A stretch of 64,000 nt of DNA. Source: Raillietiella orientalis. Lineage: Eukaryota. Below are positions 5,101-42,875 of this stretch, one piece after another. The position numbers and the translations under genes were made by a program. The first letter of the stretch is position 1; each line of letters opens with the position of its first letter. The notes beneath the pieces are model-generated. The model was not told where the DNA came from. It ran no database searches and worked only from the letters and a program-made list of their open reading frames with translations. The stretch lies in the NCBI GenBank assembly GCA_036172245.1, contig JAYWIR010000011.1:2790001-2854000 (forward strand), read 5' to 3'.

Positions 5101-5197
5101 CGTCGCTCGTCGTGGACGAAGGTGGTGGAGCGAGACAAAACTCTTCCCTTTTCTCTCTCACAAAGGAAGGCGCCACGGTGCCACCCGTGCCGCTACA

Positions 5198-18779: not shown

Positions 18780-19811
18780 TCCTCCGTGAGGCAAACCGCA
18801 GTCCATCAGCAGGAAGTTGCAGAAGTTGTACAATCTCCCCACATCCGGCACAGTTCGGGGACCAGTCCCCTCCTGCTTACCGATATGGGTAGCATGCTAA
18901 GAAACTCCTGCTCAAGAAGAGGATCTCCGTGTGCTGATTGGTCATTCTGGGAGAAGGACTGGTCCGGTGATAGGGCTCACGAGTACGGGTGCTCCCTGTT
19001 AAAGCTAGAGCCCAGCTGTACCCTTCATTCTGCCTGGATCCAAATCTCCAGCCTTGCTCCCGGAGCGTTTTTTTTTCCCCTTCTCCCCCCCAAAAAGGTC
19101 TGCTAGCTTGCGTCGCTCGTCCTCCGTGTTGAGCGGCTTTAAGAGTTGGTGACCTCGGCCTGGTAGTAGGCTAGGCACGATGCATTTTCCGAGAGACTCC
19201 AAATGAGGTCATGTCTGCAGCAGCATGGAAGACAGTCTCAAGCAAATCAGCACGCTCCCGGTCTAGAATCGACACTTCGTCCAGACCTGCTCGTATCCAA
19301 GGGCAACGAGATGGTGTTCGTGGATATCTCCCGCCCATCTGAGAACGGAGAGGAATCATGTTCCGCAGCAAGGAAGCAAAGAAAGAAGCAAAAAAAGCAG
19401 GGAATCGCCTCTCGATGCTTTCAGAAAGGTCTGCAAGCGGAGGCCCACGCCTTTATCGTGGGATCTCTTGGAGCACGAGATCCCTTAAATGATGGCGTCC
19501 TTCGAGATCTTGGCAATCCCAGATTATACTCCGTTGAGATGCAAGAACTGATGGTTGCCCCTTGCTTCAGTCACAGCCGACACATATATTGGACGCATCG
19601 GCTGGGTTATCGGCTGGATGATGAGGTGCAGGAATACCTCCTCGAATAGGAAAGTTATGGCAGCAGCTGAATGAGTACACAACTGAAAGAAATTTTCACC
19701 CTATCAATTACCACATGTCCATGTGGTAAGCAGGATAAGAAGAGAGAAAGATTGGCGAGAGCCCTTCCCTCCACATTGGTTTTTCTTGTACTCTCCTTGC
19801 TTTAAATAAAA
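18780..19811 (+). mobile_element. 3' part of RLE-type non-LTR retrotransposon (NeSL/Utopia-like), degenerate
   Basis: One frame 19173-19649 reads RHDAFSERL...LRPDLLV...VFVDISRPSENG...AARKQRK...FIVGSLGARDPLNDGVLRDLG...LMV...SRHIYWTHRLGYR. This is the RHD / PD..D restriction-like endonuclease / VGSLG series with a Utopia-like C-terminus. A KLYNLP fragment lies upstream (~18820). The 3' UTR ends at tttaaataaaa (19801-19811). Confidence 0.85.
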
Positions 19812-19849
19812 CCTATGCTCCTCAGCTTACTCCACCCATCTGATACAGT

Positions 19850-21480
19850 TTCTTGAACTACGCTTTGGAAGTGGGTGGGGGTCTTGAAGATTGTGGCTCT
19901 GTGTGCTCCGCCGTTTGGAGGATGACCGTAGATATAAGCGGGGGTCGGTTGCTTGGAGAGCATGGTGCTAGCTGAGCTGATTCGCCAATTCGCCAACATC
20001 TTTGGAGTTTTCCACCTTCGAGGGGGAAAGAGTCGCCTGTACCAGTCTGAGTTCAGAGGTAAACTCGAGACTGAGGATCCAGGGCTGCTGCCATCCGCAC
20101 AGTCGCCCGCATCATCGAGGTACCGCTGCAGAGCTCGAGCATTCAAATGCATGGACCGGGAGAGGCGACCTTGTGCTTTTAGGCGCCTGACCTTTATCAC
20201 CTCCCTGCTGCGAGATGCTGCCTCCGAGCGCAAGTGCTTAGTCACGGTGAGCTGCCACCTACAACTCTTATGCGTGTGCCCTTATGCGTGCTCATCAGTT
20301 CTCATCCACAACATGCAGCTGCAAATAGAACTCTCGTGCGATTCTCTACGATCTTCTAGTTCGATCTCTGGAAGGAGGCTGAAGCTGGAGAAATGGAGGG
20401 AGAAGGAAAGTGCGGTGGACATCCACTTTTTTCGCAACCGAGAGATCAAGAAATGAGAAGAAGCGATGCATCCTTGCATGGAAAGTGCTTTTCACTTCCG
20501 AGAATGAAAACTTCTGCAGCAGGAGAAGATGAACCTTGGAAAGACACTCTTCCTGGTTGTCTTCGCTGCGTCGCGACCAAATCACAAGTGTTGAGTCGCC
20601 ATTGGGCAGCCGAGTCGCGGGATGCTGGAAGCGATCTCAATTCGGCGCACATCCAATGATCCAATGATAATCCGATCCATGATCAGAAGTGGTCTGATGG
20701 GTCGTCATGCCATTTACTACTCTCGGTTCTTCGTTGCAGCTAAAAGCAACGGTCCTCGGCGAAGGAAAACTCACCAGTTCTGGACGCCAGGGAAAGAATA
20801 ACAACAGATCTAGCCGTGCGCTTCTTCTCTCCTTTTCTCCCCCGCCTGCATTTGCAGCGATCTCGAAGTGCGACGAAAGAGCGGTGCCAACCTGCTCCAT
20901 GGGATCACATCGATGGAGCAGGGTGGAGCCGCGAGTGGACAGCCGCTGCAACCTGCTTTATGATTGGCACGCGCGCTGCTGGATTGCGTCTGCTAATCGC
21001 GCGAGCGGCGCCTCCAGGGAACGGTGCGGACGCCATGTCCTGAAGAAGGTGCGGTCCAGCAGTGGGAGGAGTCCTCAGCAGGGTTCACCTCCCTGATCGA
21101 CACCTTAACACCCTGCATCTCGCCTTGTCCTTGTGCCTTCCGGGTTCCGGCATCTCCTTTGCGTGAAGGTCGCGAATCCCCAGAGCAGTGGGAGACGCGT
21201 ACCAGGGACCACACTCTGGATTACCGAGATGAACAACTGCCGGTGATCTTCTGGTCAGATGACCGGGATTTGGGAACTGTGAAGGATGCGCCACGAGTCT
21301 GTCGGTGTGTCGATCACCAAATCGAAACGAATTCCGCTGCTTTTCCATCCGAGAAACCTCGGCTGAGAAAGGATCAGTCATTAAGAGTGTCGGACCACTC
21401 TTCATTGCTTCCTCAAAGCATCTCCGGGAACACCCATTCAATCTCTTCGTTAATCCCTTGGTGTACTCCAACTAACGCGT
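19850..21480 (-). mobile_element. L1-type ORF2 relic (APE endonuclease plus linker)
   Basis: Ordered, frameshifted APE-like motifs on the minus strand: WYASP (VYAP-like), SARLDLLLF (SRLDRF-like, ~20800-20825), TSDH (~20680-20692), then linker WYRRLF (~20030). Confidence 0.55.
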
Positions 21481-21849
21481 GAAATTGGACCATTACCCGG
21501 AACTCTTCCTGCGTGCTTCCTTTCGGAGGCTACGCCCACCACTTTTTTGTCCTCTTTTGCCCTTGAGAGAAAGAGACAGAGATGAACTCATGGAGAAGCA
21601 TCACTTCCATTCACGCGTGGGAGCACTTCGCTTTCCGTGCAGAGTCATCCGTTCGTCCAGAGGAGCAGGCTTTCTGCGGCGGGAGCTGCTCGTCCGGCCG
21701 CCTCCGTTGTCGCGGGCAGCCAACACGTCTGCCCGTTCACCTTGGCACTGGTTTGTCTACTTGCCTTCTCTCCTTTTGAAAATCTTGGAAAGACTTCGCG
21801 TTTCACCAGGGGAACGGTGCTCTTTGAGGAACGCTTCTCCGGCCGGCCT

Positions 21850-22320
21850 TGAGAAGTGTGCGCGTTGCACCCTCGAGGGAATTCCCTGTGGCCGTGGCAA
21901 TGTGGAAGAAGCACTCCGCTGCCATCTCTGTGCTGCTTGTGCGCCTGCGTGCCGACGCGCGCGCCCAGTTCGAGCGGGAAGGGACAGACCGCACCCGCTA
22001 CCCCACTGCCCCTGAGCCGGACGCAAAGGGAAGCTGGCAGTCGTCCACGTCGGGCGCCTCTCTGGAGCTCATCGGCATGAAACTCTGCGGGAATCCCACA
22101 GGCTTGGGGTTCCCGCAGAATGACTTTCTACTGGAGCGAATCTCCTGACGCTCGATGCCCTACGAAGCGCAGCGGAAGGAGGCAGCGTGCACGCCCCCTT
22201 CAGACCGGAGGTCATCGTCACGTGCGCGACCTCGGGAGGGTCTCCCCATCGGAGCACGAACGAGTAGATCCCGATCGGGAAGGAAGGGTGATTTCCAGCC
22301 GGGGCGGTGGGGGCTGTCGC
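21850..22320 (+). mobile_element. Unclassified repeat / putative TE, copy 2 (inverted, internally deleted)
   Basis: 21950-22065 is the reverse complement of about 14885-15005, and 22100-22320 is the reverse complement of about 14390-14620. The intervening ~260 bp of copy 1 is absent. Confidence 0.75.
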
Positions 22321-23519
22321 TCCCCTAATCTTTCCGGAGAAGCTGGCAAGGGGACGAAAGGAAACACTGGCGCTCCGCTTCTCTACCCTGAGGTTGATGG
22401 CGACTCAGGCGCATAGATGGCTCCCGTTTCGGGAGGCGTTCCTTCCCTTTGTCGGAGGGTGGGTGAGGCGTGCACACCAGGATGCAGACCGTTTCCCCTC
22501 CAGCCCGGTGCGTCTCGTGCTGGAAAGGCCTCCGGACCCGCCCTACGCTATCCGCAGGTTCTCTCGGGCGAGCGGCAGGCGAGGTCAGGCGGCAACCCCA
22601 CCCTTTGACCTCTATGTCACTTCCTTTGTCCTCGGCACCGCTCCATTTTTCCCCCTCTCTTTCTGTTTCCGCTCTGTGGAGTCTGGACGCGACGGTGCGT
22701 TGCGAGGAAGGACAGAGCGGCAAGCATACGCTGTCTCCATTGTCTGCAAAGGCTGCGAGAAGGAGAAGAGGGGAGCGAGGAACGGAGAAAGGGGGGAGGG
22801 GGGAACGGGGAAAGGAAGCTTCCATGGAAAACTGACAGGCGGGAGCAACATGTTGATGACGCCAGCCTGCGGAGTATCGAGGCGCGCTTCCTGCTCGTCG
22901 TGCTTATTGTCTGCGAATAACAGGAGGGAAGGAACGATGCCTCGTTCCTCCTGGCTTATTAATTCCGCTGAGAGCAGGACGAAGAGCGAGGGGACGGACG
23001 GACGCACATGTCTCTGTCCTGTTCCCCGCTAAGTGGCCCGCCGAGCACCTCCTCACCACTGCCGCACTCTGGAAAGAGAGGACCTCGAAAAACTTCAGGA
23101 AGGGACCGGTGTGGTGTTTCGAGGAATGCCCGAGCAGAAACGAGGAAGGGTCTACCCTCTGCTCTGCCCGGCAGCGAGCGTGAGGACTCGCCCAAGGCGA
23201 CTCTGATTATGAACGAGCAGAACAGTTTTCCCGCCAGGGATGCAACCTCGTGCTGCGTTCGCGGAACCCGAGAGGCGCTTCTCGCTCTTGGACCAGCATG
23301 CAGGGTAACCGTTCAGCTGACCACCTCCCTGCCGACTAGGGGAGAGATCAGCCTGAGAGAGAGGAAAAAACAGGAGTGAACGAGACCCCTGTCCCCGTTT
23401 TACCGTGCGGACAGGACTGCATTCTTGTATTCGTGCTTGCTCTTGGGTCGTGCCTGTTCTTCCGATGTCCTCATCTCCGTTATAGACCTCGGATAAAGCC
23501 GAACTAGTCCGCCTAAGAC

Positions 23520-24950
23520 TTTTGGAGGATTCTTGGTGGATCTCATTCTGCTTGCTTCACCACGTTGAAGAGAAGCACCCCTTGATGACCGATTGGGGAT
23601 CCTAGTATGCTTTTTACGTCCCCAATGTAGATTGTCCTGCTCTCAGCAGTGGTGCTGAAGAGGAGAGCCGGGCCCGAAGAGATGGATTTGCGGTGGATAA
23701 CGGATGTGTCTCGCTTGCAAAGAATCCACAGATCCCCAGCAAGGGGAGGCGACTCGAAACTGCGAAGCGGGCGCAGTGGACAGGACATGGCCCGCTGAGG
23801 TTGGATTCTGGGGGTCGCAGCCATCCCCTGTGGGAGGGTCTGAGATGGCAGTAAAGAAGGTGGGATGACTGCCGCAAAGTTTCATCTTCATCGGAGGAGC
23901 CGTCAAGAAACCGAAGGCTGCCCGATGGACCGCAGAAAGCGTCAGAGAGCGCGGGTGGTGGTCTCTTCCACTGGGCTGCTCTGCCTGATCACGTTCGGTC
24001 CCAGGATCTTCCGGGAAGAATGTTCATTGCTTCGAGTTTGCCAACTGCCATTTTCCTGGTCATCTCCTTTCACGTTCGAGAGCAGCAGCAGTAGCAGGGA
24101 TGGGAGGAGGCTGCCAGTGCCATTCAAGGGAACCGTCAGCAACCGTCACTTCCCAGCACAGCTCAAGAAGGTGGCTCAATCTGGAAGATGGTGGAGCAGG
24201 GGCCTCAGGAGAATTGTGGACAGACTGTCATTATCAGCGACCAGGTTCCTCCCTCTTTCCCTGCCTGAAGCAGGTTCTTGGGAATCGTCATGACGACCAC
24301 AGAGTGTGCAACAATCCATCCGGTCTCTGCTTATCTGTGTGTCCACCCTCGAACCCTTCCTCTTGCTCCTACGTTCTTTCCTCCTTAGTCCTGTTCCCAG
24401 TAGGGTCTGAACCCTCTCTCGTCACCTCAGATGGAGCGGCCAGACTCTCTGGCTGAAGAAGCTGAGTATGGAACCACAGTCGATAGGACTGATTGGCAGA
24501 AGCGTCCTTTTCCCATTCCCCTAATGCATTCCTAAACCTGCTCGCAATTTCATTCATTCGTTTCAAGGGATGAGAAAGCTGCTGCGCTCAGAAGAGCATG
24601 CCATCCCCTTACCAAAGTGAGGAGGGATTCTTCCGCGCCATCTCGAGCACGGTGAGATGGTGACGCGCGCGTCTCGGGGCTGGCGTTCCAGGATGCTTCC
24701 AAGCCCGTTACACTCAGGAGTACGAAAAAGATCGGATTGCAGGCTGTTCGCCTTATCAAGGCACCCACCTTGATCTCTCAAGTGCTGTCGACCTTTCTTC
24801 TCCCGTCCTCACAGATGGACCATACCTGGCAGATTCCTCTACCCGGCCGATCAGCTCGGAACTCTCGGGGTCAAAACATTCGTAAACAGGCTGCTCTTCG
24901 TGCTTCAGGTCTCCATGGGAAACCAAGGTCTTCTCCGCCATGTTCTTCCA
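23520..24950 (-). mobile_element. L1-type relic (possible ORF1 end plus APE start)
   Basis: Minus-strand TIYIGDVKSIL (~23605-23640) resembles the APE I.GDFN..L motif. Upstream pieces (EIASRF..LGE..D...RLWF) loosely resemble an L1 ORF1 C-terminus. Heavily decayed. Confidence 0.35.
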
Positions 24951-24998
24951 GCAGATGCGAATGGTCTGGCAGCAGCACCGGCAGGCGACGGTGCAGCG

Positions 24999-25027
24999 CT
25001 TACCTTACCTTACCTTACCTTACCTTC
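24999..25027. repeat. (CTTAC)n pentanucleotide microsatellite
   Basis: cttaccttaccttaccttaccttaccttc seen directly. Confidence 0.9.
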
Positions 25028-27779
25028 ACTCTCCTGGGGGATGCCTCTCGATGCCTCGCTACTCGTCAAAAGGTTCTGTTTTTCCTTGTTCTTCCTGCTT
25101 TTTGTTTTTCTTGGCTTTACAGGATTCACCTCCCGGGGGCCGAAGCAGCCTTCTGTGACCCTCCGCTCCGTCCGCTGCTCCAGCTCGGAAGAAGAGCCCA
25201 GATCTCTCCCTCCCCTATGCCCAGGTCAGCGGCAGCCCTCCTTGGTCTTGCGCACCGGGATCAATCCGGGGATCTCGTGGGACGACGGGCGGCTCGGCCG
25301 TTCGATTCGCAGTCCAGCGCGGGCTGGGCCGCTTCTGCGTGGCGCGCTTTCTCTACCCGGAGACGTCATGGTGACCGCAGCGTCGCTCAGCCTGCAGCAA
25401 GGTTCAAAAAGAATCGTCTAGGATTCTCCCTCTTTTCCTTCACCGCCTCTTCCCTTTTTATTCCCCCCCTCTCCCCCCTTCCTCCCATCGCCCTCTCTAC
25501 CTCTTTCGCCTTTGCTTTCTGATTTTCTCCTTTCCTCAGCTCCTTCTTCACCTCTTCTTTGGTCCCTGAGGCGGCTGCTCACCGGTGGGAGTCCGGGTGC
25601 TCAGCGAGAACCTAGACAATCTCCTCAACTTCCTTTGACCCCGAGCTTGCGCCGCCGGTGCTGGCTGGGGAATGGATTAAGAAAGAAGGGGTGAAGACAC
25701 CGGACCTGCAAAGTGGTCAGCGATGCATCGCGTGGAATGTGTTACCTGGGAGGCCCACATCGGATTCAAATGCCTGGTGAGGTAAGAGGAGGGCAGTTCT
25801 CCTTCATCCTTCCGTTCTCTTCCGTCTCTTGTTCATCTTTCCGGACGAGAAACTCCCTCGGCAATTTTGGCAAAGTCGGAGGGAGAGGCGCGTGCAAGTT
25901 CTTTTCATGGGGGAGGTGGACGAACGCTCGGGGAGAGGGGTCAGAGGATCGAAGTGAAGGGAGGAAGGGATGTGACCAAGCCAACGGGACAGCAGACCGT
26001 CGCCCCTCTGAAAGGGAAGGGATCGGAAGCGATCCGAAGAGGGAGGAGAACCTCTCCGATTTCGCCTGGGAGCGCCTAGTCACAGAGCTCCCGACAATCG
26101 GATTTCCCTAGAAGGGAACCTCCGAAGAATGCCTAGAGGCGACCCGCTCCCGACTATTTGACAGCCCTGCAGGAAGCAAGCCAAGAAGCAACTTCAGGAA
26201 GGTCGGGGAACGGGATGGACTCCCCGGGGCTTCCCTCTCCAAACTGCGTCCAGCTCGGGGAGGGAGGGGGAGATAAAGCGGTACAGAAGATCCGACCCCG
26301 CGTCTGAAGGGAGGACGGTGCCTGGAGGATGCTCCCACAACGAGTTTTGGGACGATGGGTTGCACTCCTTGCCATCCGTCCTGGGAAGATGCGAAAAGGG
26401 AAGGAGGAAGCCAGGAAACCTGAAGCATCGCCCCCGTGTTGGGATCAGAAGTCACCGTGAGTCCTCCCTTTCGGGAGGCAGGTGGTAGGGACGGCCTGCC
26501 GAGCTTGTCCGGGAAGCGGATTCCTCCCCCTCCTCCTCGCTTCCCCTTCGCCCTCAATCCCGCCTGGCCGTCCTCAGAAAGCAGGAACGCCTCCTCGAGA
26601 AGAGGTCAGCTCACTTCTTCCCCTCACTCAACTCGCTCTCCTCCCGAACCAGAGGTTGCTTCCCCTTTGCTATTACCCCTACTCCCACCTCACCCTGGGA
26701 AGAAGCGGGAGACCCCTCCCTCTCTCCCGGGGATGAACGTCAAGGACTCCTGCCCTGAGACCCCGCCGAAGGAAGAAGCGTTGGCAACTCCTCACCTGGT
26801 TCCCAAGGAAACCCTCAGGGTCAGGAGGAAGCGATCTAAGCATCTTCGGGATCGACTCCTCCCCTTTCCCTCCCGGAGAGATGGGCGAGGCGAGGAGCAC
26901 CGGAAGACCTCGGCATCCCTGCCAGAAAGGTCTCTGGGAGCGCGGGAACGGCGGCGGCTGGAAACGTCCGAGGCATCGCATCGCTCGAGGGAGGAAGAGG
27001 GACCTCCGATGCCGCGTGCCCCCGGAAAGGTGGCCTCCGCAGGAGACCGAGCAGCTCCCGGGATTTTCCCTTTGTCCGCTGCAATGTGGAGGAGCGCTGG
27101 CCTGAGGGGCTGAGCGCTCCCGCCGGGATCTCCAGCGAGCGCAAGCTGGGAACGCCCCAGGGGAGCGAAAGACTTCCCGAGACAAGACCGGGACTGCGTG
27201 GACACCGGTGCACTTCCGGGCCTTCGCGAGCAGCTGAGGGAGAATCGCCCTCTTTCTAGGAAGACTCAAGAGCGGTGGCGGGAGGGAGGAGGAGAAAGGA
27301 GGGGCAGTGATGATGAACCTGAAATGGGAACGGTCGCTTCAATCGATGGGGATCCGGGACTCGCGCACTTCCAGTTCCCCCTTTCCCTTGGCTCAGCGTC
27401 CCGTTGCCCCTAATGCCGCTGCTTCCACCTTCCTCCTCCACTTCCTCTCCTCCCCGGCTGCGCCCCCCACCTCCCCCCCGTGCTTCCCGACTCGGGCTGG
27501 ACGCAGCAACCGATGGGGCGGCAAAGCAACACACGCCCTCCAAGCGCCGCCTCTTCCCACCGGGGCTTCTCTGAGGAGGAGTGGGCACAGGGGCCCTGCT
27601 CTGGAGATGACCCTCACGGCGTCCTCCGGACGGCGCTCATTCCTTTTCCCTCGTGGGCCGCCAGGGTCGGTAAGCGTCCGCCTCCTAGATCGCGCACCGC
27701 GACACCGCTTTTCCGCCGGAGACCGTAGGGACGCTCGGGGCTGCTGCGTGGTTTTCGGGAGATGACCTTTGCGCTAGGA

Positions 27780-28100
27780 TCGGGTAGCAGAGAGCGAACG
27801 ACAGTTGGGTTCGGCAGGGACACAAACCATCGGGAACCGCGGGTTTCGATGGACCGAGCACATCCCTAGTGGCGCGCGACCGCGTGACCTGGCCTTTGCC
27901 TTCTGCCGGGGGAAGCTCACGGAAACAGAAAGGTCCAGAAGCGCAGGGAGTCCCGGTGCCCCGCGATCCGCACTCGAGTGGCTTCCAGGAAGTTTGTCCC
28001 GACTTCTCCAGATGTGGCTGTTCAACGACGCGCGTTCCCGGGGCGCTTAAGCGCAGAGTTCCTAGGAGAGACCCGAGGCACCTAGGAACTGCTTCCCGCG
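27780..28100 (+). mobile_element. RLE-type (NeSL/Utopia-like) non-LTR relic, linker/CCHC region
   Basis: EHIPSG...LAFAFCRGKL followed (frameshift) by SRCGCSTTRVPGALKR...RH resembles the H(F/I)..G..F..RARL and CRRCG..ET..H.L..C...RH succession upstream of the RLE domain. Confidence 0.4.
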
Positions 28101-30204: not shown

Positions 30205-30301
30205 TGCCTCCTTCTCCTCCTTCCTTCTCCTCCTTCCTTCTCCTCCTTCCTTCTCCTCCTTTCTTCTCCTCCTTCCTTCTCCTCCTTCCTTCTCCTCCTC
30301 C
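30205..30301. repeat. Polypyrimidine (CCT/CCTT) low-complexity tandem repeat
   Basis: Repeating cttctcctccttc units; similar tracts at 44690-44860 and 47828-47968. Confidence 0.85.
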
Positions 30302-30499
30302 TGCTGAGGCCTCTCACTTATGCTCACGTGTAGGACCGCTGGCGGTGGCCCATCTGAAGTCTCCAAAAGGACTCCCGAAGTGCAAAATGTCTCTCCTTGC
30401 CTCCTTGAAATTGCAGATTCTCTTGGTCCTTGGAGTTTTCCGGGTCCAGCCACAAAGGCAGGCAGGGATAAGGGCACTTCCATCCCTTCCGGCGCCTTC

Positions 30500-32310: not shown

Positions 32311-32899
32311 GCCTAATAGGTCCTGGGGGCCATTCCTGCGGATTGCTTGCCCTCATTCCCCTTTCTCCCCCTTCCATCCCCATCCCCATCCCACTGTCCT
32401 TCCCGTCCTCATCCCATTTTCGCGACCGTAACGAAATTCGCGATTCGCGGGATGCGGGCACCCCGACTGCAGCTCCTCGAGGATTGGATCCCCCCTTCCC
32501 CCCCTCCACCGCTGTGACGGATTGTCCCCACGATTGGGAATCAATGAAAGTCGCGCGCTCACATCCCTGCGGGACTGGCCACGGGGAATCCTTTAATTGG
32601 GACCGCTCCGGCGGTCCGGGGGAGATCGTAACTCATCCCGCCGGACTTTCTCAATCCCGCTGCTCGCTATCACATCTCCTCTAGATGCTCCCGTCCTTTT
32701 TCGCTTCCTCTTTTCCGGGAGCGCCTCTTCCTCCCCCCTTTTCCCGCTTCCTTCTTCGGCGGCTCTTCCCTTTCCCAGGAGAGAGAGCGGTCGACTCGAT
32801 CCGCAAGAGGGAACTTCGGCCTCCCTCCCTCTTCCTCATCCCCGCGAATCAAGGAACCTCCTTCCTCCCCACCATGACCACCACTCTCCCTGATATCCT

Positions 32900-34437
32900 T
32901 CCCTCTCTCTGAGTGTCCGTGCTGCACCTCTCTTTGTGGATCCAGGAGCGAGACTAAACCCCCTGCGACGGAGAAGAAGGATCGCGACCTCGTCTCCACG
33001 TTGCATCTCCTGTCCAGCTGTCCTGAAGCGGTTGCAGAGGCGGAAGCTGGGTCACGTAACCGTTCTCCTTGACCGATAGGACGAAACTCCCTACTGTGAT
33101 TCCTGAAACGCCAGAAAAAAAGGTGCCACCGGGGAAGGTGGGTCAAGTGGGGCTCGTGACCTCACCGGCGATGTCGCCAGATCCCCTCCCCTGCTCTGGG
33201 ATTCTTTTTCCCAGGAAAACCCTGCATTTCCTTCTTCTGACGACCCATATTGCCATCTCACACCTCCGCGGCCGCATCTTCCCCCCTCCCCCCCCCTCTC
33301 TCCCTTTCCTTCTTTGGTGTTGCCTCCCATCCATCCCAGACCGTTGGAAGGCTGCTGCTCCTGATGGAGGAGGAGGATGTCCTCCCCTCCTTCACCACAG
33401 GGACGCCTCTGCCGTTTCGAGCCTCGGAAGGATAGTTTTGATGGGGATTTCAAGCCGAGTCTCTCGAGACCACGCTCTCTGCCGCCGGCGCTGGAGCCGA
33501 GAACTCGACCGCCTTCTTCGTTTCGGCTGACCTCGAGCGCACAGTCCCGAAGGGACCGGCTGTCGAGTGGGAAACGCTGGGGGGAAAGAGGGGAGACGAC
33601 GCTGGTGCCTGTCGGGAAAGCGCAGGGGAGGCTGCTTGTGAGCGCGGACTCTTCCCTCGCGGTCCTCGAGCCGTCCTTGACCCATGACCCTCCGATCAGG
33701 GATTCTGCCTCATCCCTCGATCACTGAATTTTAGATTTCTGTTGTGTAGAACGGATGCCCCTCAGATGTTCTCCAGCTGTTCCGGTATACGGTCACCTCG
33801 CTGAAAGAGCGAAGCTGCGTCTGGATTACTGTGGACACCATTAGTCCCGGTCCCTCTCCCAGAGGGTAAGCCCAGCGCACGTCCTAGCTGCGCTCGACGG
33901 TGGTGCACCCTCCACCCTGCCGTTGCCGCCGCTTCCTCGGGCGTCGCCTGCCTGTTCGCGGGGCCCCATGCCTCTTGTTCGAGGTCCCCGGAGCTGCCAT
34001 TGACCATGCCGTCTTCCCGGAATCGGTACTCCCTGAAGGCGAAGAAGGAGGAGGGAGCACCCTCCCTTGTTTCACTCTTCGCCGCACTTCCTCCTGCTGC
34101 CGCCTTGTGCCCAGGAAGCGTCGAGCGGGATGACACGACTTTTGTATGCTGGAGGAAGTGGTGGTCTTCGGTTTCATTTGTCCCTTTCTTTCTAGAAGCG
34201 GCTGTGAATGGTGGTCGTCTCCCTGGCGATGTCTTATGGCAGGTGAGGGTTACTTTGCAGCCGTCCTCGCGAAGGCAACTGCCAGCTGGTGGACTTCCTC
34301 TGCTGCGAACGAGGCTCCATCACAGGACGGTTGCTGTGACGAGGGCGCAGAGGCAGCATCTCGTCGCGATTACGGTGCCCGCCGTTTCAACCCACCTTCC
34401 GTGAAACTATCGTACTCCATATAAAATACAAATAAAT
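32900..34437 (+). mobile_element. L1-type element lacking RT (APE joined to C-terminal zinc finger)
   Basis: DGDFKPSL (~33440), RLLVS, SLDH (~33720) then FRF give the end of an APE domain. About 400 bp later come LCPGSVERDDTTFVC (zf-RVT-like) and WW..AANE, ending in the A-rich ataaaatacaaataaa (~34421-34437). Confidence 0.5.
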
Positions 34438-34899
34438 GTAATGGGGCTTTGACTTTGTAACCACTGCATCCTAAGAATGGTTCCTCTTAGTGTTCCGCCT
34501 TAAGGCAACTTTGGCGTTGCCTCCTGCTGTTTTTGTACCTCATCTTTTTGCAATAGGATGACCACTTCCTCGATTCATCTTCCACTGAAGAAGTTCCCTC
34601 AAATTCACTACGTGTTGCCAGAGTTTATCAGCTCACTCACTCATATTGCTGCATGCTCTCGGAACAAAAGCGAAAAGGCTGATACGTTACTGATATATAT
34701 ACATATTAAAAAAAGAAAACGAAGTAAAGAAGCTTCACATCAGTCTTTGGTGCCGTCCTCCGGGTGGCGAACTGCCGAAGCGAGTCGCCGCCACATGTCC
34801 TCCGTGGCACCGCGGTCCAACAGTTCGGGGAGGCAACTCCCACGCGAACCAGGAGCCTGCGCTGGTTGCAGGAAAATCTCAGCGCAGAAACAACAAAGA

Positions 34900-37560
34900 A
34901 TCCTGTGATTTCCACCGCAGAAGTAGCACCGTGGTGTCTGCACACGTGGTGGAAAGGTGGGGGGAAAAAGGTAGCGCATTCTTCGAGGCGCACAACGAGC
35001 AGGTCGTTCCACCGAAGGAGCCCCTTCGCCCAGGGCCGAGGAGTGGCGGCGTCCGCCAACTCGCTCATCTTGAAACGGTCTAGGAGTTTCTCGACTCCCG
35101 CAACGCTGCAAGATAACTCCCACCACCACGCTGGCTGGCTTCCGCCGTCGGTTGCCCTGAGGGTAGGCAGCGCTGCGGCAAGGGACGGGATGGCTATCCG
35201 GGACCGTTGCGTCCAGCCAAGCAGGGTATCTCCTAGAGGTTCGCAGAGGAGTTTCCTCAGAGGGAGAAGTTTCTCTGGAGCTTTCGGACCCTTCCCGGTT
35301 AGGTCTCCGGTACCGCCTGGCTGGAGGTCGCCGACTTTCCCTGCAGCGCCTCCTCGACAAGGCTGACCTCTCGACAAGGTTCGAATTCTACACGGAGGTT
35401 CAGAAGGCACATTCCTGGGTGCATAAAGATGCAGATTCCGCGACAGACGCCTCGGACGTTTTTGTCCCGCCCCACTGCTCTCACGGCTCACCGAGCACAA
35501 GACGGATGGCGCGTACGCAGCGGTAACACGTGATTTCAATCACTCGTCTCCAGAGAGCAGCACCGGGGATGCTCGAGTCTGGGCAGCCGGCTTTGGATCT
35601 TTCCCTCCTCGCTGGTCTTTCTCTGGAAACGCCAGTCCTCAGAACCGACCGAGTAAGCTCTGGCGGACCGCTACCTACCCTGAAGTGTTCCATCCTTGAG
35701 AATCTTCCTTCGTTCAGTCGTCCTCTGCTCAGAAAGCTGGTGGCAGCAGCTTCTTAGTCATGCTGAGCACGAATGGAGCCCGGAGATCGTCTTCCATTAT
35801 CCAGAGACCCACGTTTGGACTTCCCGGGATGTACAGGAAGATTTTCATCCCCTCCTTCACTTTGCATTGGACTATGTTGAAAAGGAGTCTTCTTGAAGGA
35901 CTCCTCTGGATAAGGGAAGCCGCAGTGCAAAAGGAGGAGAGCCACGTCTTCGGCATGTGCATCGCCATCTGGTTCGAATAGGATCCGAGTTTCCTCCCAC
36001 TAGGTCTGTGTCTGAGTTTTCCACAAAGTCATGGTCCCAAGCACTCCTGGAAGTGCCAGTCCAAAGTCCAAGCATCTTCAATGGTCTGCACGGTTTCCGT
36101 GGAGAGATCCAGCAATTATCTGAACCTGCTTGCGTCCACCGACGAAAAACCCCACGTGGTACCATGAGTCGCGGGATCGAATACTCCGAAGAAATTGACG
36201 CAGTGAGTCATGGGTCCCGAGTTCACCCCACAAGATGACGCCGGTTGGCCTACATTCATCCGGGTGCGGCACTGGTAGCGGTTGAAACCGGATGCCCCCC
36301 AATGAGGGCCGGGACAAATGGGAGTGGACCTCCGGGTACTTCCAGGAATCACGGAGTGGGAGCTCCCCTCCGGTTGTGAAGGAGCGGACCCCCCATTCCA
36401 AGGGGAACCCCTCCGCGTCGGACTGATGGAGTAGGTATGTCGCCACCACCTCTCCAGAGAGTGCAGAGACGCGGGCTGATCCCTTCGGGGAAGTTGCATC
36501 CTTCTGAATTTCGGAAGCGTCCCTTCTAAGTTCTCTTCAGAGGAGTAAAAACAGGAGCGATCTCTTGCGGGTTCCTTTCAGAAAAGAAAAGCTGGAGCGA
36601 ACTCCTCCAAGGGTCTCTGGAATCTCTAAGGAAAGAGATTTCCTGCTGGATCCCCCTTCGGTGACTTCCTCTCGACTTCTTTCCTCCATCCCCTCAAAGT
36701 CACTCGTTATAAAGGAGGTGAGAAGGAATGCTTTAGTGGCAGCAGCCAAAAAAGTGGACCTTGAAGGCAAGCCGGAGCTGCTATCCAGGTATGCTCACTC
36801 CTGTGCTCTCTTCGGACGGTGGACTCGAGGAAAATGAGAACAAAAAGCATAGGAAAGAAGGCGACGTGCTCGCAGAGCCTGGCAAAGGGCATCTTCCTCG
36901 ACCAAGGGTTCCAGCAGCGTTCGTAGGCATGCGATGAGGCCGCAGGGCAGCGGCAAATCACCCTCCACTCACTAGTCCTGTTCCACTCCGACCCGCTTTC
37001 CGTTCGAGGATAAAAGTGAAGCCCCTCCACTTCGGAAAGGGGATCGGAGGGAAACAGTCCCAAGGCTGAAAGGAGAGGGAGAGAGAGTAAGTCTCGAAGA
37101 GCCAATGCAAAAAAAACAGAAAAGAAAGAGGCGGCAGGACAAACCGGAGTTGCAGTATCGAGAGAAGCAGGTGGTCACGGCACTTCGATGCAAAAAACGC
37201 GCAAGTGAATTTTCGGAAGAGTGCGAAGGGGTCATCGAAAACGACTCTGCAGCCATCAGCGGAAGAAGAGAGCACTTCACCTCTATCACTCGTTAGAGGG
37301 TCAGGAGGTGAGGGAGTTCTTCTAGTAGGTTCCTTTTCCCAGAAAGCCACCAGAACTCATTGTGGACAGGGAGTTCTGTTTTTTTTGAATAAAAAAGAAG
37401 AAAAAATCTCTCCTGAACTCATCTCATGGCTGCGACCACCGCTGCGATTAGTTGCTCACAGTACAATCACCGGAAGTCTTCTCTTGTTCTTAGCTTTTCT
37501 GACTCCCAGTGACAAGGCATCAAGGATCCGGGCGACGATATTCGACCGTTCCTCACTGAA
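34900..37560 (-). mobile_element. L1-type relic (ORF1 end, APE, RT start) interrupted by SINE copy C
   Basis: Minus-strand order: ORF1-like LSALG..P...RV..YERC (36900-37090); APE-like DTDLVG, LYIP, IMEDDL (35780-36090); RT-start-like LTGKGP...VEKLLDR...AKGL (35010-35310). Confidence 0.45.
36128..36690 (+). mobile_element. tRNA-derived SINE, copy C (degenerate head)
   Basis: cgcgggatcgaatactccg (36170-36188) matches cgcgagttcgaatactccg of copy B. The body is colinear with 17540-18050 (ggcactggtagcggttgaa; ttccaggaatc; ctctccagagagtgca; tttcggaagcgtcccttc). Confidence 0.7.
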
Positions 37561-38192
37561 AGGGAAAGCGGAGTGAAAAGGCGCTGTTGTGGGCAGGCAA
37601 AGTCGTTTCCACGTCTCTCATGTCTCTTCCCGACTCAGACTGGGATCGCTATTTATTCATTATTAGCCTCTGACCTTTACCCGTTAGTAGCCTTCCCTTC
37701 TCACCCTCACGCTCCCTTAGCAGCCTCTCTCCCGGCGAAGTTCAAACCCCTTCCTCATCGGACCGGAAGACGTCATCACACATTCCTGTTCCTGTTTTAT
37801 TTAATTTGAATAAATGTTCATGCACACCGGGCCTGCTCGGGGATGGTGGTACGTAAGTTGAGGACACAGGCGGCAGGTGGGATAAGTACCATCTGTACCC
37901 GTAACGCGCGCGCCTGGCTTCAGAGGTAGCCTGCATTTTAGGGAATCCCAACCGACCGAACCGGAAGTGGCATGAACGTTTATGCTCCAGTCTCCTCTGG
38001 AGTGTAAGTTTGGGAGCTTGAAGAAGTCCACGCATGCCACGACGCAACCTGAAATCCGAAATGGAACGATAAAAAACAAGAGATTCCTGTTGTTCTTCTC
38101 AACAAATGTTTTCTTGCTGGAAAGTAAAATTGCCTGGGGCGACCACCCCCTCAATGACGGAGCTACATGCGAATCGGGGACGACTGTGCTTT

Positions 38193-38281
38193 ATGTCTCC
38201 ACCCCTCATCTTCGTCTCTGGATGGGCGACATCCAGAGACGAAGATAAGGGGTGGAGACATCTTCGTCTCTGGATGTCGCC
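38193..38281. repeat. Triple inverted repeat (A-A'-A)
   Basis: 38193-38224 pairs with 38230-38261 (31/32, 5-nt loop). 38225-38246 pairs perfectly with 38260-38281 (22/22). Confidence 0.95.
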
Positions 38282-38559
38282 TGGGGCTGCCGATCCATCG
38301 CACCCAGAGGACCTACTCCGCAACGCAAAAAGGCGCGAAAGGACCGCCCAGGGGAGCCCGGACATCGCGGCGCGGCTTTGCCATTCTGGCAGCGCTTGTG
38401 ACCGACACGCATTTAAACCGACAGATCCTTCCTTGACCGCTGAAGGGAGCAAGAGAAAAAACCTCTCCAGAAAACGCGAATTCAGGTCCTTGTAGCAGAA
38501 GAGTCCTTAGTAAGCAGGACACCTGGCAGGTCAGGGAAGAGAACAGTGAGGGGGATGAT

Positions 38560-39130
38560 CTGTCCCGATGCGATCCACTCACCTTGCGACCACCCTGGAA
38601 AAGGAAATGGGGAAAAAGAGTCAGCCTGGCTCCTCCAGGACCTTCCTTTCCTGTGTGTGCAGGCACTTCGGTTCCTCCTTAAAAAGCGAGCGCGAGGTGC
38701 TCTTGTTTCTGCGCTGGGGCTTCTGGGCGCAGTCAGTGCTGTCTTCCCCCCGTATCTGGAAGAGTTGCGACGTCTCCAAACTGCCCGAGGTCCGGGGCGA
38801 TTGGGTAGTTGCCGCATTTCTTGATGGAATGCAGCGGAGGCTGTCTCCAGCACCCCTGCTCCCGGAAAACACCACCTACACGTTTATGAACGCGAGGAGG
38901 CTTACGGCAGACTCGTGCCGCCTCGTGTGACGCCTTCCTCTTACAGCAGGCGGTCGTGACCGTGGCGGTGGGTGATCGCATCCGCGCCAACGTCACAGCT
39001 TGCAGAGAGCTGGAGTCTCTTGGAGCTGAGAAGGAAGGCCATCACCTCATGAGGCGCGCTTCTTCCAGATGAGGCTGAGAGCTGGCCTCTCCTGGAAGAA
39101 GTCTCCGCCGAGACTGACGCTTCTGTCCTA
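38560..39130 (-). mobile_element. L1-type ORF2 C-terminal relic (zf-RVT region)
   Basis: APHEVMAFLL (P.KV..FLW-like), ACCKRKASHEAARVC and AVWRRRN (IW..RN-like) in the expected order, downstream of the RT at 40.5-41.9 kb. Confidence 0.6.
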
Positions 39131-40469
39131 GGAACCAAAGAGTGGCTCGTTCCAAAGCTTCACTTCCTTCCTTCCTTTTTTATTGGTTTTTTTTTTTCTA
39201 TTCGTGGATTCATTGTCCCCTCGTCTCTGCTCCAGACTTCCTCAGAGTTCGGCCTAAGTGCAGTTGATCCCTTCCTTTCTATCGTTGTTCTCAGAGAACT
39301 GAGCTTCCAACTTGTTTGTTCATTCATTTATTTTTAAGCAATCGCAAGGCGCACCAGGCTAAAAAGAAAAAAAAACAAAATTGAAAAATAAAGCGAAGCC
39401 TCCTAGAGGCGAGACTCGGCAATAGCAGAAGAACCCGCGCGTCTGAGTTCCCAAATGAAGCTGCTGGGTCGACGCAACTCAGCCTAAGAATAAAAGGGGA
39501 AGAAGTGGGACCAGACATTTCACAAGTTCCCTGGAGGACTCCGTGATCAGACTCGGCGGGGTAGCTCTGTTTTCTTGCCCTTCCTAGGAACACGTTCACA
39601 AACGTCCCCGCTTTCCAGCACACTCGGAAATCGAATTGCTGGGAATCGGGTGGCATTTTTTGGAAGGCTCTGCCGGAGGAAACGGCGCCAGGAAGCCCAA
39701 GACGGAGCTTTCCCTCTCCGGATGTGACGGGACCTCTTCTGTGGAATGTTTTTTGCGGCGGCGACCGTCGCGGCCTCCCCTCACCCGGAATACAGGTGGG
39801 ACTGTAGGGAGGCATCGTTTAGCGCCTCCGGAAGGCTTCCCGATTGCCAAGACAGGGAGCGGGATCCTTCGTCGAGTCGCAGCAAGGCTCGGGAACGCAG
39901 CTGCGGACCCCCGAAGGCCATCCAGCGAGGGGAAGGAGGGGGGAGCGCTCCGAAAGAATTCGCGAGTTCTTCAATTCGGATGCACGGCGCACATCTTGGA
40001 GCAAAATCAGACCCTGCCAGAAAACAGGAAGCATCGAGGTCGTACGGAATTAACAGAAGGCACATGCGAATTATCACGGGTGCTGTATGATAATGATGAT
40101 TACCCAGTTATGACAGAGCCTTCATTACGTAGAGTAATAAAAATACAGTTTTGTATGTATCTGAACCTGCCGAAAAGCGGTGCGCAGACCGGCGAGGCCC
40201 GCCTTGGCAGCGTGGGGGAGGGGAAAACAAAAAAACAAAAAACGGGGGAGGGTGAATGGGGGTGCAAGTCCGTGGGGTGGCACACTCGGGGTCGCAGCGT
40301 CCGTTACTTTCCGAGTTGTCCACTCCCCAAGAAGTTTCATCTTTGCTGCTATGCTGCAAATAACTTCCCGCCTTACCGGGATTACACTGTCCCTTGCATT
40401 CCTTAGGGAGAGCAGCACTGAAGTCGGATGGATGAGGCTCATCGCATCTTTTGCGGGTTGGGGATTATC

Positions 40470-41900
40470 TCCTCCAACGACTTGCGAGTGTTGACGCCCC
40501 GCTGTAGGCAGGCGTACCCCGCCTCGCTCGAGCCGTGGATCTTTCCTCAGGCGAAGACTGACTCCTGAGGCCAAGCAGTGCAGTTCGCGCGGGGGGGTGG
40601 GGCAGGAGATCCAGGTGTTCTCCTCCACCAGGGCAACCATCTAGCGGAGTTGGTATCAGCAATCTCTCATGAGCGACAAGGAGAAATGTGAGTCCCTCGC
40701 AGCCGGTTGCGTTCTTCTCGAGGAGCCGTGCTGGTGTGCACCAGGGCGTTGTCCATAGTCTCGCCACGAGGACGAGTCTTCTAACTTGCCGTTCTGGATC
40801 GCCATCTCAACCTTTTGGAGACGGTCGGACCAGGCTTCTGCTGGGCAGAAGTCCCCCAACGGAACGCCAAAGTACTTGAAGTACCTGCCCGTGGGGATCT
40901 TCAAGCAAATCCAGTTCGGCCGCCTGGAGCACGCCGCACCGACAGGCACTACGGACGACTTCGTCCTGTCTACCTCAAGTCCGGTCCCGCGACCGAGCAG
41001 CTCGAAGAAGCGCTCGAGTGCAGACGCAGAAGTGGACATGGGGAGCAGCAGCAGAAGATCGTCTGCATAAGCCGGCACGGCAGACGTCATGATCTTAGAG
41101 CTAGACTGCTATCCAAAAATCTGGGCAGCACCTCCATGGATTCCACAAACGCCTCCTCCATGGTCTTGCATTTAGTAAACTCTTAAGACCTTGTAAATCG
41201 AAGATTTCATCATTGTAATTTCCAGAGGGGAAGGGGGGGACAAGGGGCAAGGGCAGTGTCTGTGAGGTGAGGGCGCTAAGTTTGCAACATCTGTAAGCAT
41301 CCGTTGCAGAATGAAGCAGGGATGTGCCCTGACTTCGCCATTGTTGAGCATGGAGATGAAACACTTTCGCATGCCAAAGACACCGTTCGTTCAGACACGG
41401 CTCGTTTTCTGTGCACGCAGATGACCCCCTCCCCCCTTCTCTTCCTTTTCGACAGCCAGCATGCTGGAAAAACTACAAGAGCAACTCTCCCTTTTCGAGG
41501 AGCTGTTCAGAGCTGCTCAGCCACGAGCCCCAAGAAGAGTGGCCATCACCCTCCATTTCAGAGCGACTACGCCTTGTGGTTCGTCGGCCAAGGGCAGACG
41601 TTCCGAATAAACCAATCAGGGATTCCTGTAATCGAGGCATTCCAGGAGTGGCAAATACCTTGGTAAGCCGTTTCGTATTGATCTGCTAAAGAGTAATCCC
41701 TCCAGAGAGTAGATAGCGGCCGAGGAGGAGACCCGATGGACTATGGGCGCTCTGTCTGGCGGAAGCTGGATGCGCTGAAAACCTTCTTTTATTGTGAACC
41801 AATGCGCCTAGAACGGCTCCTTATAGGAAGTTGGGCATCCACAGACGGAAAGATCAGAGGTCTGATCGACGTCTAAATCTCTTAAGCAGAGCCACAAATC
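40470..41900 (-). mobile_element. L1-type reverse transcriptase (pseudogenised ORF2)
   Basis: ORF 40656-41090 reads AYADDLLLL (YADD at 41058-41069)...FELLGRGTGLEVDRTKS...YFKYFGVPL. Upstream frameshifted pieces include CPLSP (~41230), RLTKV and a decayed PGPDG..FYK-like GCPTSYKEPF (~41810-41840). Confidence 0.9.
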
Positions 41901-42436
41901 AGCATCCGCATGGAAAGCGCACGCCAAAGAATCCCCAGAGCTCAAGGAGGTGCTGGACGGTGACGCCGTCTTCCTTATGGGCAGATGCTTTGAGCTGCTC
42001 CCGACCTGCCTCACCGCTCCATGTGGAACACCTCGCTTCACCCTGCGAGATGTGGACAGGAAGGGGGATCCCGTCGGCACTCCCCTCCGAAAGGGGGCGC
42101 AAGAGGCCGCGTGTCCAGGAAATGCAAGGAGGGGGAGGACTCGAGCCGAGGATCGTGAGGGGTGTGTATGTCGGCAGAAGACAGGCGTCCAGTCACATGA
42201 AGACCCTCTCTGGTCTATCACTGATGGCAAACCTGAGGGGATGGCTGGGATGTCAGCTTCCAGCAAGAGAGAGGGAAGGGGAAAAAGACGTGAAGACGAG
42301 GATTGCAGCCAACACGCGCTGACCCTGCGTAGCAGCACCCTCGTTCCAACGCCCCCGGACGAAGAGAAAGCCGCATCGTGCGCAGGATCACACCATCCTC
42401 TCACGTGCGTATCCCCGGTTCACGCGTGAGTCTCGA

Positions 42437-42875
42437 TCAAACTTTCCCGCCGCAAGAGGAGAGGTCAGAAGACAAGGCGGAAGTACGCTGCATGCAGACA
42501 GCGAGGCCGCGGGATGGTGCAAAGACGCGACGCGCGCGTCGGCGAAGACCGTCGCAAGAGCGGCACGCGGAGTCCAGAACTGAAAATGGAGGACACGGAA
42601 TCACAGCTGCCCCCGAATCTCCTATCACTGGTAAGAGATCAGCGCATAATTTCAGACGTGGTACGTCCTTTCGAGAACACCCCAGGAGCATCCAGACTGG
42701 CTCGGGAGAACGTGGAGAGTATAGATCGAGCGCATATCACATTATCGCTCTCCGGATGCCCTCCAAGGGGACCGCAATGTCAGCGCGCGTAATCCTCGCG
42801 GGATCACTAGGAGCTCGGTATCCGACCAATGATCGAGCACTTGAAGGTCTGGGAATCGATCCCACGCTGATCGCC
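42437..42875 (+). mobile_element. RLE endonuclease fragment of NeSL/Utopia-like non-LTR element
   Basis: LPPNLLSL..IISDVVRPFENTPGASRLARE, then (frameshift) ILAGSLGARYPTNDRALEGLGI; homologous to 19203-19649 at protein level. Confidence 0.85.

Follow-up and report, generated by a model that had tools for sequence, protein, structure and literature searches.

Two truncated retrotransposon copies on the plus strand

The window, a GC-rich stretch of 64,000 nucleotides that was analysed as a whole, carries the remains of two RLE-type non-LTR retrotransposon copies, designated relic A and relic B. Both lie on the plus strand, as an earlier sequence-only reading of this DNA had it. Relic A (19170-19649, +), identified by its ORF, by phmmer, by HMM and by fold, codes for the C-terminal RLE (PD-(D/E)xK) part of a protein from a non-LTR retrotransposon. 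The reading frame runs uninterrupted through 159 codons to a TAG stop. A phmmer search against 1.84 billion representatives returned 303 matches at E<=1e-3, of which 44 reached E<=1e-10, located at the C-terminal ends of long RT proteins of about 1000 residues. Among the 50 long relatives scanned with Pfam, 48 showed RVT_1, and seven had Peptidase_C48, the Ulp1 protease, N-terminal to the RT; a Myb domain was detectable in none. When a family HMM was built from 25 full-length matches with relic A itself left out, relic A scored 119.1 bits (E=1.8e-35) over HMM positions 975-1121 of 1129, against maxima of 1.5 to 4.7 bits for reversed-ORF controls. The RLE domain previously claimed at 19173-19649 is thus confirmed in its place. 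Relic A starts immediately past the CCHC motif of the protein, which indicates that the copy is 5'-truncated; stops directly adjoin the frame on its upstream side and a start context is absent.

Two frameshifts interrupt relic B (about 41757-42950, +), the older of the two copies. Its upstream piece (41757-41858, +) carries the post-RT linker motif W.KLDA..TF and scored 6.2 bits with the HMM, compared with a reversed-ORF maximum of 1.5. The HMM found the first half of the RLE (42553-42719, +) in the frame of 42430, where RPD has decayed to PPN and the D.. and PFEN motifs are retained, and the second half (42720-42875, +) past the frameshift in the frame of 42333, which carries the GSLGAR..P.N motif and ends with a TGA stop. 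The RLE motif set is partly retained. The two frames are collinear with the family HMM (42574-42708 with positions 997-1043, and 42732-42860 with positions 1048-1090), and relic B joined with X at its two breaks scored 39.8 bits (E=3e-11), so that a domain reported earlier at 42437-42875 is indeed there, in broken form. A possible decayed C-terminal tail in a third frame (42878-42980, +) was read by eye; it is uncertain, and the HMM left it unaligned. No alignment between relics A and B was obtained at the DNA level.

The sequence-only reading had also placed weaker relics of upstream domains around 27.8 kb and between 30.5 and 32.3 kb, which would bring the RLE family to at least four relics between 18.8 and 42.9 kb, with N-terminal or RT pieces at the two additional places. 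That arrangement, which came from inspection by eye only, is very unlikely: two full-length family HMMs, one of them spanning the Ulp1 and zinc-finger regions, gave no match at E<=10 at either place, and the Pfam matches there were noise at chance level (DUF4633, E=0.08; LRRCT, E=0.038; PurK_C, E=0.041). The same two HMMs found no RT upstream of relic A or relic B on the plus strand, consistent with 5' truncation of both copies. No Ulp1 remnant was found in the window with an HMM of the Ulp1-bearing clade; 5' truncation alone would already remove this N-terminal protease.

In the window as a whole, the 148 longest ORFs gave zero Pfam matches, telomere-type motifs had no matches, and the sole signal of a period-3 scan was a low-complexity stretch at 53.1-53.6 kb. 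A weak RT-like relic of a type that could not be assigned lies on the minus strand at 40659-41108 (7.7 bits, compared with a control maximum of 1.5).

Nuclease fold and motifs

The relic A sequence by itself matched no solved R2 protein in the PDB at E<=10. A profile made from relic A and 62 short matches recovered solved R2 proteins at their C-terminal RLE (9nl3, 3.8e-22; 9dou, 4.7e-22; 9nl2, 2.7e-18; 8gh6, 6.5e-8). The AlphaFold2 model of relic A had a pLDDT of 89.1, and its top PDB matches were the RLE domains of R2Tg, R2Pm and R2Bm, with query-normalised TM values of 0.64-0.75. Of the RLE motif set given in Govindaraju et al. 2016 (PMC4838377), relic A was found to retain most: RH, PD, D, E and, within K..KY, the two lysines. 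The Y of this last motif, a position that is Y in 143 of 143 matches, has been lost, as has the W of the G.W motif. By motifs, profile and fold, relic A therefore carries the C-terminal PD-(D/E)xK domain by which RLE membership is recognized, with the same fold and motifs as the 28S rDNA-specific R2 elements, of which R2Bm, R2Tg and R2Pm are solved. Both relics have R at a column where the 143 matches mostly have W (112) or Y (21) and R only once. An IYW.H motif is common to relic A and five of the seven Ulp1-bearing relatives; whether or not a row has IYW made no difference to its mean identity with relic A (0.305 with the motif, 0.315 without).

Two explanations that do without a dead element copy can be weighed at this point. 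If the matches were chance open frames in GC-rich DNA, the high number of such frames would be the only observation in favor; this explanation is already refuted by the E values of both relics, set against reversed controls of at most 4.7 bits, and by the match of the relic A fold with solved RLE domains, and it has practically no probability left. The other is that relic A is a retained fragment of a nuclease gene in use by the host, to which its uninterrupted frame and the retention of seven of eight near-invariant alignment positions would be favorable. However, frames of at least 150 codons are common in this GC-rich window (n=156), the stops directly upstream and the missing start context do not fit a gene, K..KY has lost its invariant Y and G.W its W, and relic A is on a long branch. 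Host use of relic A is thus extremely improbable.

Insertion sites and 3' ends

The probable 3' UTR of relic A extends over 19650-19815 (+), as read by eye, with AATAAA near its end (about 19803-19812). The 3' terminus of the element is probably close to this signal, judging from the single copy. By eye only, the 3' UTR resembles the 3' termini of turtle Utopia elements in S1 Fig of PMC4640811, and the same kind of comparison with the turtle and alligator Utopia families given there indicates that their 3' regions also end near AATAAA. A 12-base motif from the turtle 3' end had no match with one mismatch or fewer, and no convincing target-site duplication was found around relic A.

At the gathering score, no Rfam family was reported anywhere in the window, and a threshold of E<=1 brought up nothing relevant. 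U2 was not found at E<=10 near relic A or at E<=1 anywhere in the window, in agreement with the earlier placement of the relics outside U2 genes. Spliced-leader RNA families had no match at E<=1, no rRNA was found by Rfam, no tRNA genes were found, and neither relic adjoins a U2, spliced-leader, rRNA or tRNA gene. The window showed no enrichment of the U2 target motif (allowing up to 3 mismatches, 6 matches against 3.94 expected), with none of the matches at a junction, and neither a microsatellite nor an rRNA target follows the 3' end of relic A or B. Accordingly, neither relic occupies the specific U2 snRNA gene site, with a 3' flank from the TCTGTTCTTATCAG region, that defines Utopia insertions, and the spliced-leader gene and Ulp1 remnant that would identify NeSL in the strict sense were both missing from the window.

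Reference elements and phylogenetic placement

Reference elements were typed by the RNA gene flanking them, as assigned by Rfam, U2-inserted elements being taken as Utopia and 28S-inserted elements as R2. Three RLE elements (L083, L084 and L085) have U2 flanks in which the junction at the U2 site could be read directly, and three others (L006, L008 and L096) adjoin 28S rRNA. The set contained no named Repbase families and no named NeSL element, and HERO, R4, R5 and YURE were left out of it. A metagenome scan with nine closer proteins as the query yielded L001 and L002 as the closest metagenome relatives, with short 3' flanks in which there is no RNA gene; a scan of viral contigs found no relative. 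In L023, a further candidate, the U2 target motif is present without a mismatch, but the element is of the APE type (Keno-like) and was rejected as an RLE reference.

Relic A scored 77.8 bits with P0004, 54.6 with L002 and 24.6-36.8 with the U2-inserted elements, all on the Utopia/NeSL side, as opposed to 5.6 bits with L006, -0.3 with L008 and at most 2.2 with any ORF of L096 on the R2 side. The sequence-only reading had likened the C-terminus of relic A to the Utopia type. The C-terminal motif it pointed to does correspond to the consensus of the relic A relatives, but it is missing from U2-inserted L083, whose C-terminal tail differs from that of relic A, and is therefore not diagnostic of Utopia.

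A tree of RT and RLE together, with 56 rows and 794 columns, contained a clade of 46 (SH-aLRT 94) made up of the full-length relatives of relic A (42 of 42), L002 and the U2-inserted L083, L084 and L085. This clade was nested in a clade of 50 (SH-aLRT 100) with the six 28S-type rows outside. The Ulp1-bearing relatives formed a single clade in this tree (SH-aLRT 99). Since the RT is absent from the window, the defining RT phylogeny is not possible for the relics themselves, and these were placed by the RLE. In an initial RLE tree (144 rows), relic A had no supported place and the Ulp1 rows were scattered. A and B both fell on the Utopia/NeSL side in the two RLE-only trees that included them, with a support of 94/98 for the split in the second tree. 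With the HMM-based alignment, A and B formed a sister pair (96/92) beside the Ulp1 clade (96/89); with the MAFFT alignment they were apart and their placements unsupported. The position of A and B inside the Utopia/NeSL clade thus depends on the alignment.

These placements have to be weighed against the possibility that A and B belong to another RLE clade, namely R2, R4/Dong, HERO, R5 or an unnamed one. AU tests with the RLE only did not reject relic A among R2-type, 28S-inserted rows (p=0.113; p=0.093 with B) or at the base beside all outside rows (p=0.447), nor did they reject A and B together with the U2-inserted elements (p=0.219). Named HERO, R4 and R5 elements were not in the comparison, and both copies lie outside U2 and spliced-leader genes. 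On the other hand, forcing relic A to group with the R2 type cost 23 log-likelihood units, its scores were below 6 bits with L006 and L008 compared with 25-78 bits for rows on the Utopia/NeSL side, its sequence alone found no solved R2 protein, and the 3' ends of both copies lack an rRNA or microsatellite target. Taken together, membership in another clade is unlikely, and for R2 in particular relic A has neither the insertion into 28S nor the close similarity that would be expected. As for the phylogeny against known clades called for by the sequence-only reading, the separation of the relic A relatives from 28S-inserted R2 is supported, while the AU tests are compatible with more than one placement of relic A itself. 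The two relics are likely to be Utopia/NeSL-like.

Interpretation

With a probability of roughly 0.7, relics A and B are dead, 5'-truncated copies of RLE non-LTR retrotransposons, most likely of the Utopia/NeSL group and probably of one host-specific lineage. Their formation would follow the insertion mechanism of R2, which we infer to be common to A and B. In elements of this kind the RLE nicks the target DNA, and the RT copies the element RNA beginning at the 3' end, a process known as target-primed reverse transcription; an early stop of copying leaves only the 3' part, that is, the RLE-coding end of the ORF and the 3' UTR. The finding that A and B hold just an RLE-coding end and a 3' part is what would be expected from incomplete target-primed reverse transcription. 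Insertion at a site outside U2 genes may be due to weak target specificity.

Like Utopia, A and B are of the RLE non-LTR type, and the relatives of A group with elements inserted in the Utopia site of U2 genes; unlike Utopia, they have neither a U2 or U2-like target nor an RT. According to Kojima and Jurka 2015 (PMC4640811), Utopia includes families whose copies are mostly without U2 flanks, among them reptile and some ant families mostly outside U2 genes, and the reptile families, like A and B, comprise old, truncated copies outside these genes. A difference from the reptile families is that the CpG observed/expected ratio of the window is 0.87, which is not depleted and so argues against a vertebrate host. 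A coccidian host, suggested by the base composition, was weighed with the help of PMC4337577 and PMC9141347 and rejected, as nothing connects the window with coccidians. Kojima and Jurka 2015 is also the source of the link between the Ulp1 cysteine protease and NeSL; the NeSL-1 or Utopia-1_TSP type of organization, with an N-terminal Ulp1, is represented by the seven Ulp1-bearing relatives of A and contrasts with a window in which neither an Ulp1 remnant nor a spliced-leader gene was found.

The relaxed or altered target specificity proposed in the sequence-only reading may apply to these copies, which are outside U2 genes, but it is not new: Utopia copies in such positions have been in print since 2015 (PMC4640811), which makes the finding an ordinary one. 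Genomes commonly contain debris in the form of decayed RLE retrotransposon tails with the 5' part missing, and the significance of A and B is small as matters stand. A more specific reading, which we regard as possible yet doubtful, is that the host is a GC-rich non-vertebrate, possibly a protist in which Utopia/NeSL elements are uncatalogued, and that A and B represent a host-specific lineage, recognizable by an R where G.W has its near-invariant W, that lost U2 or spliced-leader targeting and spread in non-coding DNA. If true, target choice would have been relaxed once more, independently, in a group that is otherwise site-specific, and a host lineage unrecorded for the group would provide a data point on the frequency of target loss and on the eukaryotic reach of these elements. 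As a by-product, the typing of relics by means of references flanked by RNA genes, here U2-inserted and 28S-inserted elements of stray eukaryotic contigs, may be useful where no named library is at hand.

Relic A and its nuclease domain

Relic A occupies positions 19170-19649 of the plus strand, where an open frame of 159 codons ends in TAG. A phmmer search of 1.84 billion representative proteins gave 303 matches at E<=1e-3, of which 44 reached E<=1e-10 and 2 reached E<=1e-30, and the region matched was mostly the last 150 residues of proteins of 800-2500 residues. Among 50 long matches, Pfam placed RVT_1 in 48 (the exceptions were the database proteins P0001 and P0033) and Peptidase_C48, the Ulp1 protease domain, upstream of the reverse transcriptase (RT) in seven; an RNase H or Myb domain was found in none of the 50. 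A family HMM built from 25 full-length matches, with A itself left out, scored A at 119.1 bits (E=1.8e-35) over model positions 975-1121 of 1129, and the best reversed open frame of the window, taken as a control, scored 1.5 bits. Upstream of 19170 the frame is shut by stops and the family HMMs gave no further match. Since A starts just past the place of the CCHC motif, it is 5'-truncated. About 165 bases follow its stop codon and end near an AATAAA signal; by eye only, this 3' region resembles the 3' termini of the turtle and alligator Utopia families as drawn in S1 Fig of Kojima and Jurka (PMC4640811). The two best-scoring matches, P0001 and P0002, have three or four tandem restriction-like endonuclease (RLE) domains per predicted protein, and these are probably head-to-tail truncated element copies fused by gene prediction.

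Relic A alone had no match among solved structures. A profile of A with 62 short matches led to solved R2 proteins, at their C-terminal RLE: 9nl3 (3.8e-22), 9dou (R2Tg, 4.7e-22), 9nl2 (R2 of Platysternon, 2.7e-18) and 8gh6 (R2Bm, 6.5e-8). An AlphaFold2 model made from the same alignment had a mean pLDDT of 89.1 and a pTM of 0.80, and its top six Foldseek matches in the PDB were those R2 proteins, with query-normalised TM-scores of 0.58-0.75. By the profile and the modelled fold, A is a restriction-like endonuclease domain. Cleavage requires the motifs RH, PD, D/E, K..KY and RG.W according to Govindaraju et al. 2016 (PMC4838377). A retains RH, PD, D, both K..KY lysines and the E of FEN. It carries K where all 143 aligned matches have the Y of K..KY, R where the G.W motif shows W in 112 of 143, and S where F is present in 119 of 143. 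The RLE tail is thus well preserved, not pristine.

Relic B and the other proposed relics

Relic B, also on the plus strand, was recovered in pieces. One, at 42574-42708 (model positions 997-1043), has RPD decayed to PPN and keeps ..DV..PFEN; another lies past a frameshift at 42732-42860 (model positions 1048-1090) and reads GSLGAR.P.N; the third (41757-41858), upstream at a collinear distance, has W.KLDA..TF, a motif that comes after the RT in A's protein family. Scored one by one, the pieces reached 8.6, 12.4 and 6.2 bits, where no reversed frame exceeded 1.5, and when B was joined across its two breaks with X the score was 39.8 bits (E=3e-11). Relic B is therefore real; it extends over about 1.2 kb and is older than A. 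Relics A and B have in common an R at the G.W column, seen in only one of 143 matches, which is one item of independent support for their kinship.

Four relics of RLE retrotransposons had been proposed in the sequence-only reading. A and B stand, and the stretches at 27.8 kb and 30.5-32.3 kb lack support: neither matched at E<=10 the family HMM or a second one, built from 11 Ulp1-clade proteins with their N-terminal parts included. Their plus-strand frames gave just DUF4633 (E=0.08), LRRCT (0.038) and PurK_C (0.041) in Pfam.

Elements of the R2 type insert by a nick that the RLE makes in one DNA strand; from this nick the RT starts to copy the RNA at its 3' end. If the same holds here, an early stop of copying would leave dead 5'-truncated copies made of the 3' UTR and the part of the ORF that codes for the RLE. 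A and B are both exactly of this shape, and by this analogy neither can have been active once inserted.

Reference elements and clade placement

References were labelled by insertion target. Nine full-length matches of A were aligned and used for scans, which yielded 80 metagenome loci and 78 loci on eukaryotic contigs binned into prokaryote genomes, and an RLE was present in 6 and 15 of these, respectively. By Rfam, locus L083 has a 1417-residue ORF with U2 fragments at either side, and U2 lies immediately upstream of the ORF in L085 and downstream of it in L084; the junctions of L083 are at the published Utopia site, with a duplication of about 25 bp. Because these three are in U2 genes, they are Utopia elements by definition. 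Full-length RLE elements in U2 genes, at the site used by Utopia, span L083 804-5563, L085 357-5172 and L084 2-3531, with L081 and L101 as further cases. On one 25-kb contig, several copies of U2-inserted RLE elements lie a few kb apart. The contigs of the U2-inserted elements are titled as a bacterial MAG, so the bin appears to contain eukaryotic DNA. Loci L006 (4743-4984), L008 (1-209 and 4141-4456) and L096 (1-595) adjoin eukaryotic 28S rRNA and are therefore R2-type; L096 and its relatives L092 and L094 are titled as a bacterial endosymbiont MAG, which suggests that host rDNA went into the same bin. The metagenome contig L023 holds at 968-5188 an element with a 1183-residue ORF, in which an N-terminal half read by eye as AP-endonuclease-like precedes a reverse transcriptase, and a U2 gene directly follows the element, starting at the U2 target word used by Utopia; with its AP-endonuclease domain so read, this is a Keno-like element at Utopia's site.

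An RT+RLE tree of 56 rows and 794 columns (quick search, SH-aLRT support only) was built without P0001, P0002 and all matches under 800 residues. A clade of 50 (SH-aLRT 100) left six 28S-type rows outside, and a clade of 46 (94) held three U2-inserted elements, all 42 full-length matches of A, and L002; seven Ulp1 rows fell within one subclade of 11 (99). The tree gives the same picture as Kojima and Jurka (PMC4640811), who report that Ulp1-bearing NeSL branches from within Utopia. Relic A scored 77.8 bits against its database match P0004, 54.6 against L002 and 24.6-36.8 against the U2-inserted elements. The scores were 5.6 bits with L006 and -0.3 with L008, both 28S-inserted, and at most 2.2 with any L096 ORF. 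The C-terminal motif S.xIY..H..G, likened to a Utopia-type C-terminus in the sequence-only reading, is the consensus of A's relatives, and 19 of 143 matches, five of the seven Ulp1 rows among them, show its IYW.H form. The U2-inserted L083 has an unlike tail, so the motif is not diagnostic of Utopia.

Trees with A and B themselves had only about 155 RLE columns. An HMM-guided alignment kept 52 rows, six (five of them 28S-type) being dropped for poor coverage, and made A and B sisters (96/92) that joined the 11-row Ulp1 clade (96/89). With MAFFT and all 58 rows they were separate, neither with a supported partner, and a 94/98 split put both with the Utopia/NeSL rows, away from the R2-type rows and four further outside rows. 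A tree of 144 RLE rows gave no supported place for A. AU tests did not reject A with the six R2-type rows (p=0.113, at a loss of 23.1 log-likelihood units), A and B together with those rows (p=0.093) or with the R2-type L008 (p=0.179), or A beside all outside rows (p=0.447). Nor did they reject a grouping of both relics with the elements found in U2 (p=0.219) or a sister relation of A and B (p=0.503). Given these non-rejections and the unsupported place among 144 rows, the clade call comes mainly from the similarity scores and the position of A's relatives; on these, the proposed Utopia/NeSL affinity of A and B is likely, at a probability of roughly 0.7.

Insertion sites and target specificity

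Across the whole window no Rfam family reached its gathering score. A cut-off of E<=1 brought up a palindrome at 38.2 kb and one weak match of miRNA type and nothing else, and around A there was nothing relevant at E<=10. No tandem repeats were found at the 3' end of A or B, and no target-site duplication was recognisable flanking A. The U2 target word of Kojima and Jurka occurred six times in the window with up to three mismatches (3.94 expected), none of them at a junction. Relaxed target specificity, as had been suggested, is not new biology: crocodilian copies inserting outside U2 over tens of millions of years are described by Kojima and Jurka (PMC4640811), so that a lineage of this kind has been in print since 2015. 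Utopia-like proteins in sponges are reported in PMC13188248 (2026). In the literature library searched, nothing beyond Kojima and Jurka 2015 linked NeSL, Ulp1 and retrotransposons, and among the six papers listed from 2016 on for NeSL and 'restriction-like endonuclease' none concerned dispersed copies, by title and start of abstract. We consider the clade plausible and the biology already known; if the host lineage is one in which Utopia/NeSL elements are unrecorded, the relics would be a modest range extension.

Composition and other repeats of the window

GC content was 46-70% in 2-kb steps and about 58% overall, and over the whole 64 kb the observed/expected ratios were 0.87 for CpG and 0.41 for TpA, values that differ from what vertebrate DNA shows. 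The 148 longest open frames had no Pfam match at E<=0.001, no tRNAs were found in the window, and a strong period-3 signal came from a low-complexity stretch only, with no coding periodicity otherwise. The window appears to be a long, GC-rich, non-coding stretch without CpG depletion.

A dispersed repeat of 953 bases has two copies (13666-14616 and 51067-52013) at 92.8% identity, with no Pfam match; it is far more recent than the RLE relics, and a further match to its right end lies inverted at 22106-22325. An older dispersed family is represented by four or more partial copies, 68-74% identical (17506-18013, 36155-36589, 1935-2195 and 56233-56474), and the distance from one of them to relic A, which lies downstream of it, is about 1.2 kb. 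The near-perfect palindrome of about 70 bases (38189-38265) was hit on either strand by the models mir-4716 and MIR4374, at values far short of their gathering scores, and looks like a hairpin or a small inverted-repeat element. Seven copies of the 13-base unit TCCTTCTCCTCCT (30209-30299, 97% identity) form a tandem repeat within a stretch that the sequence-only reading took for a weak relic. Adjoining relic B on the minus strand is a weak reverse-transcriptase relic (40659-41108, perhaps on to 40468) with YADD and ..YFGVPLG, which scored 7.7 bits, where the best reversed control had 1.5, and may be L1-like or of another type.
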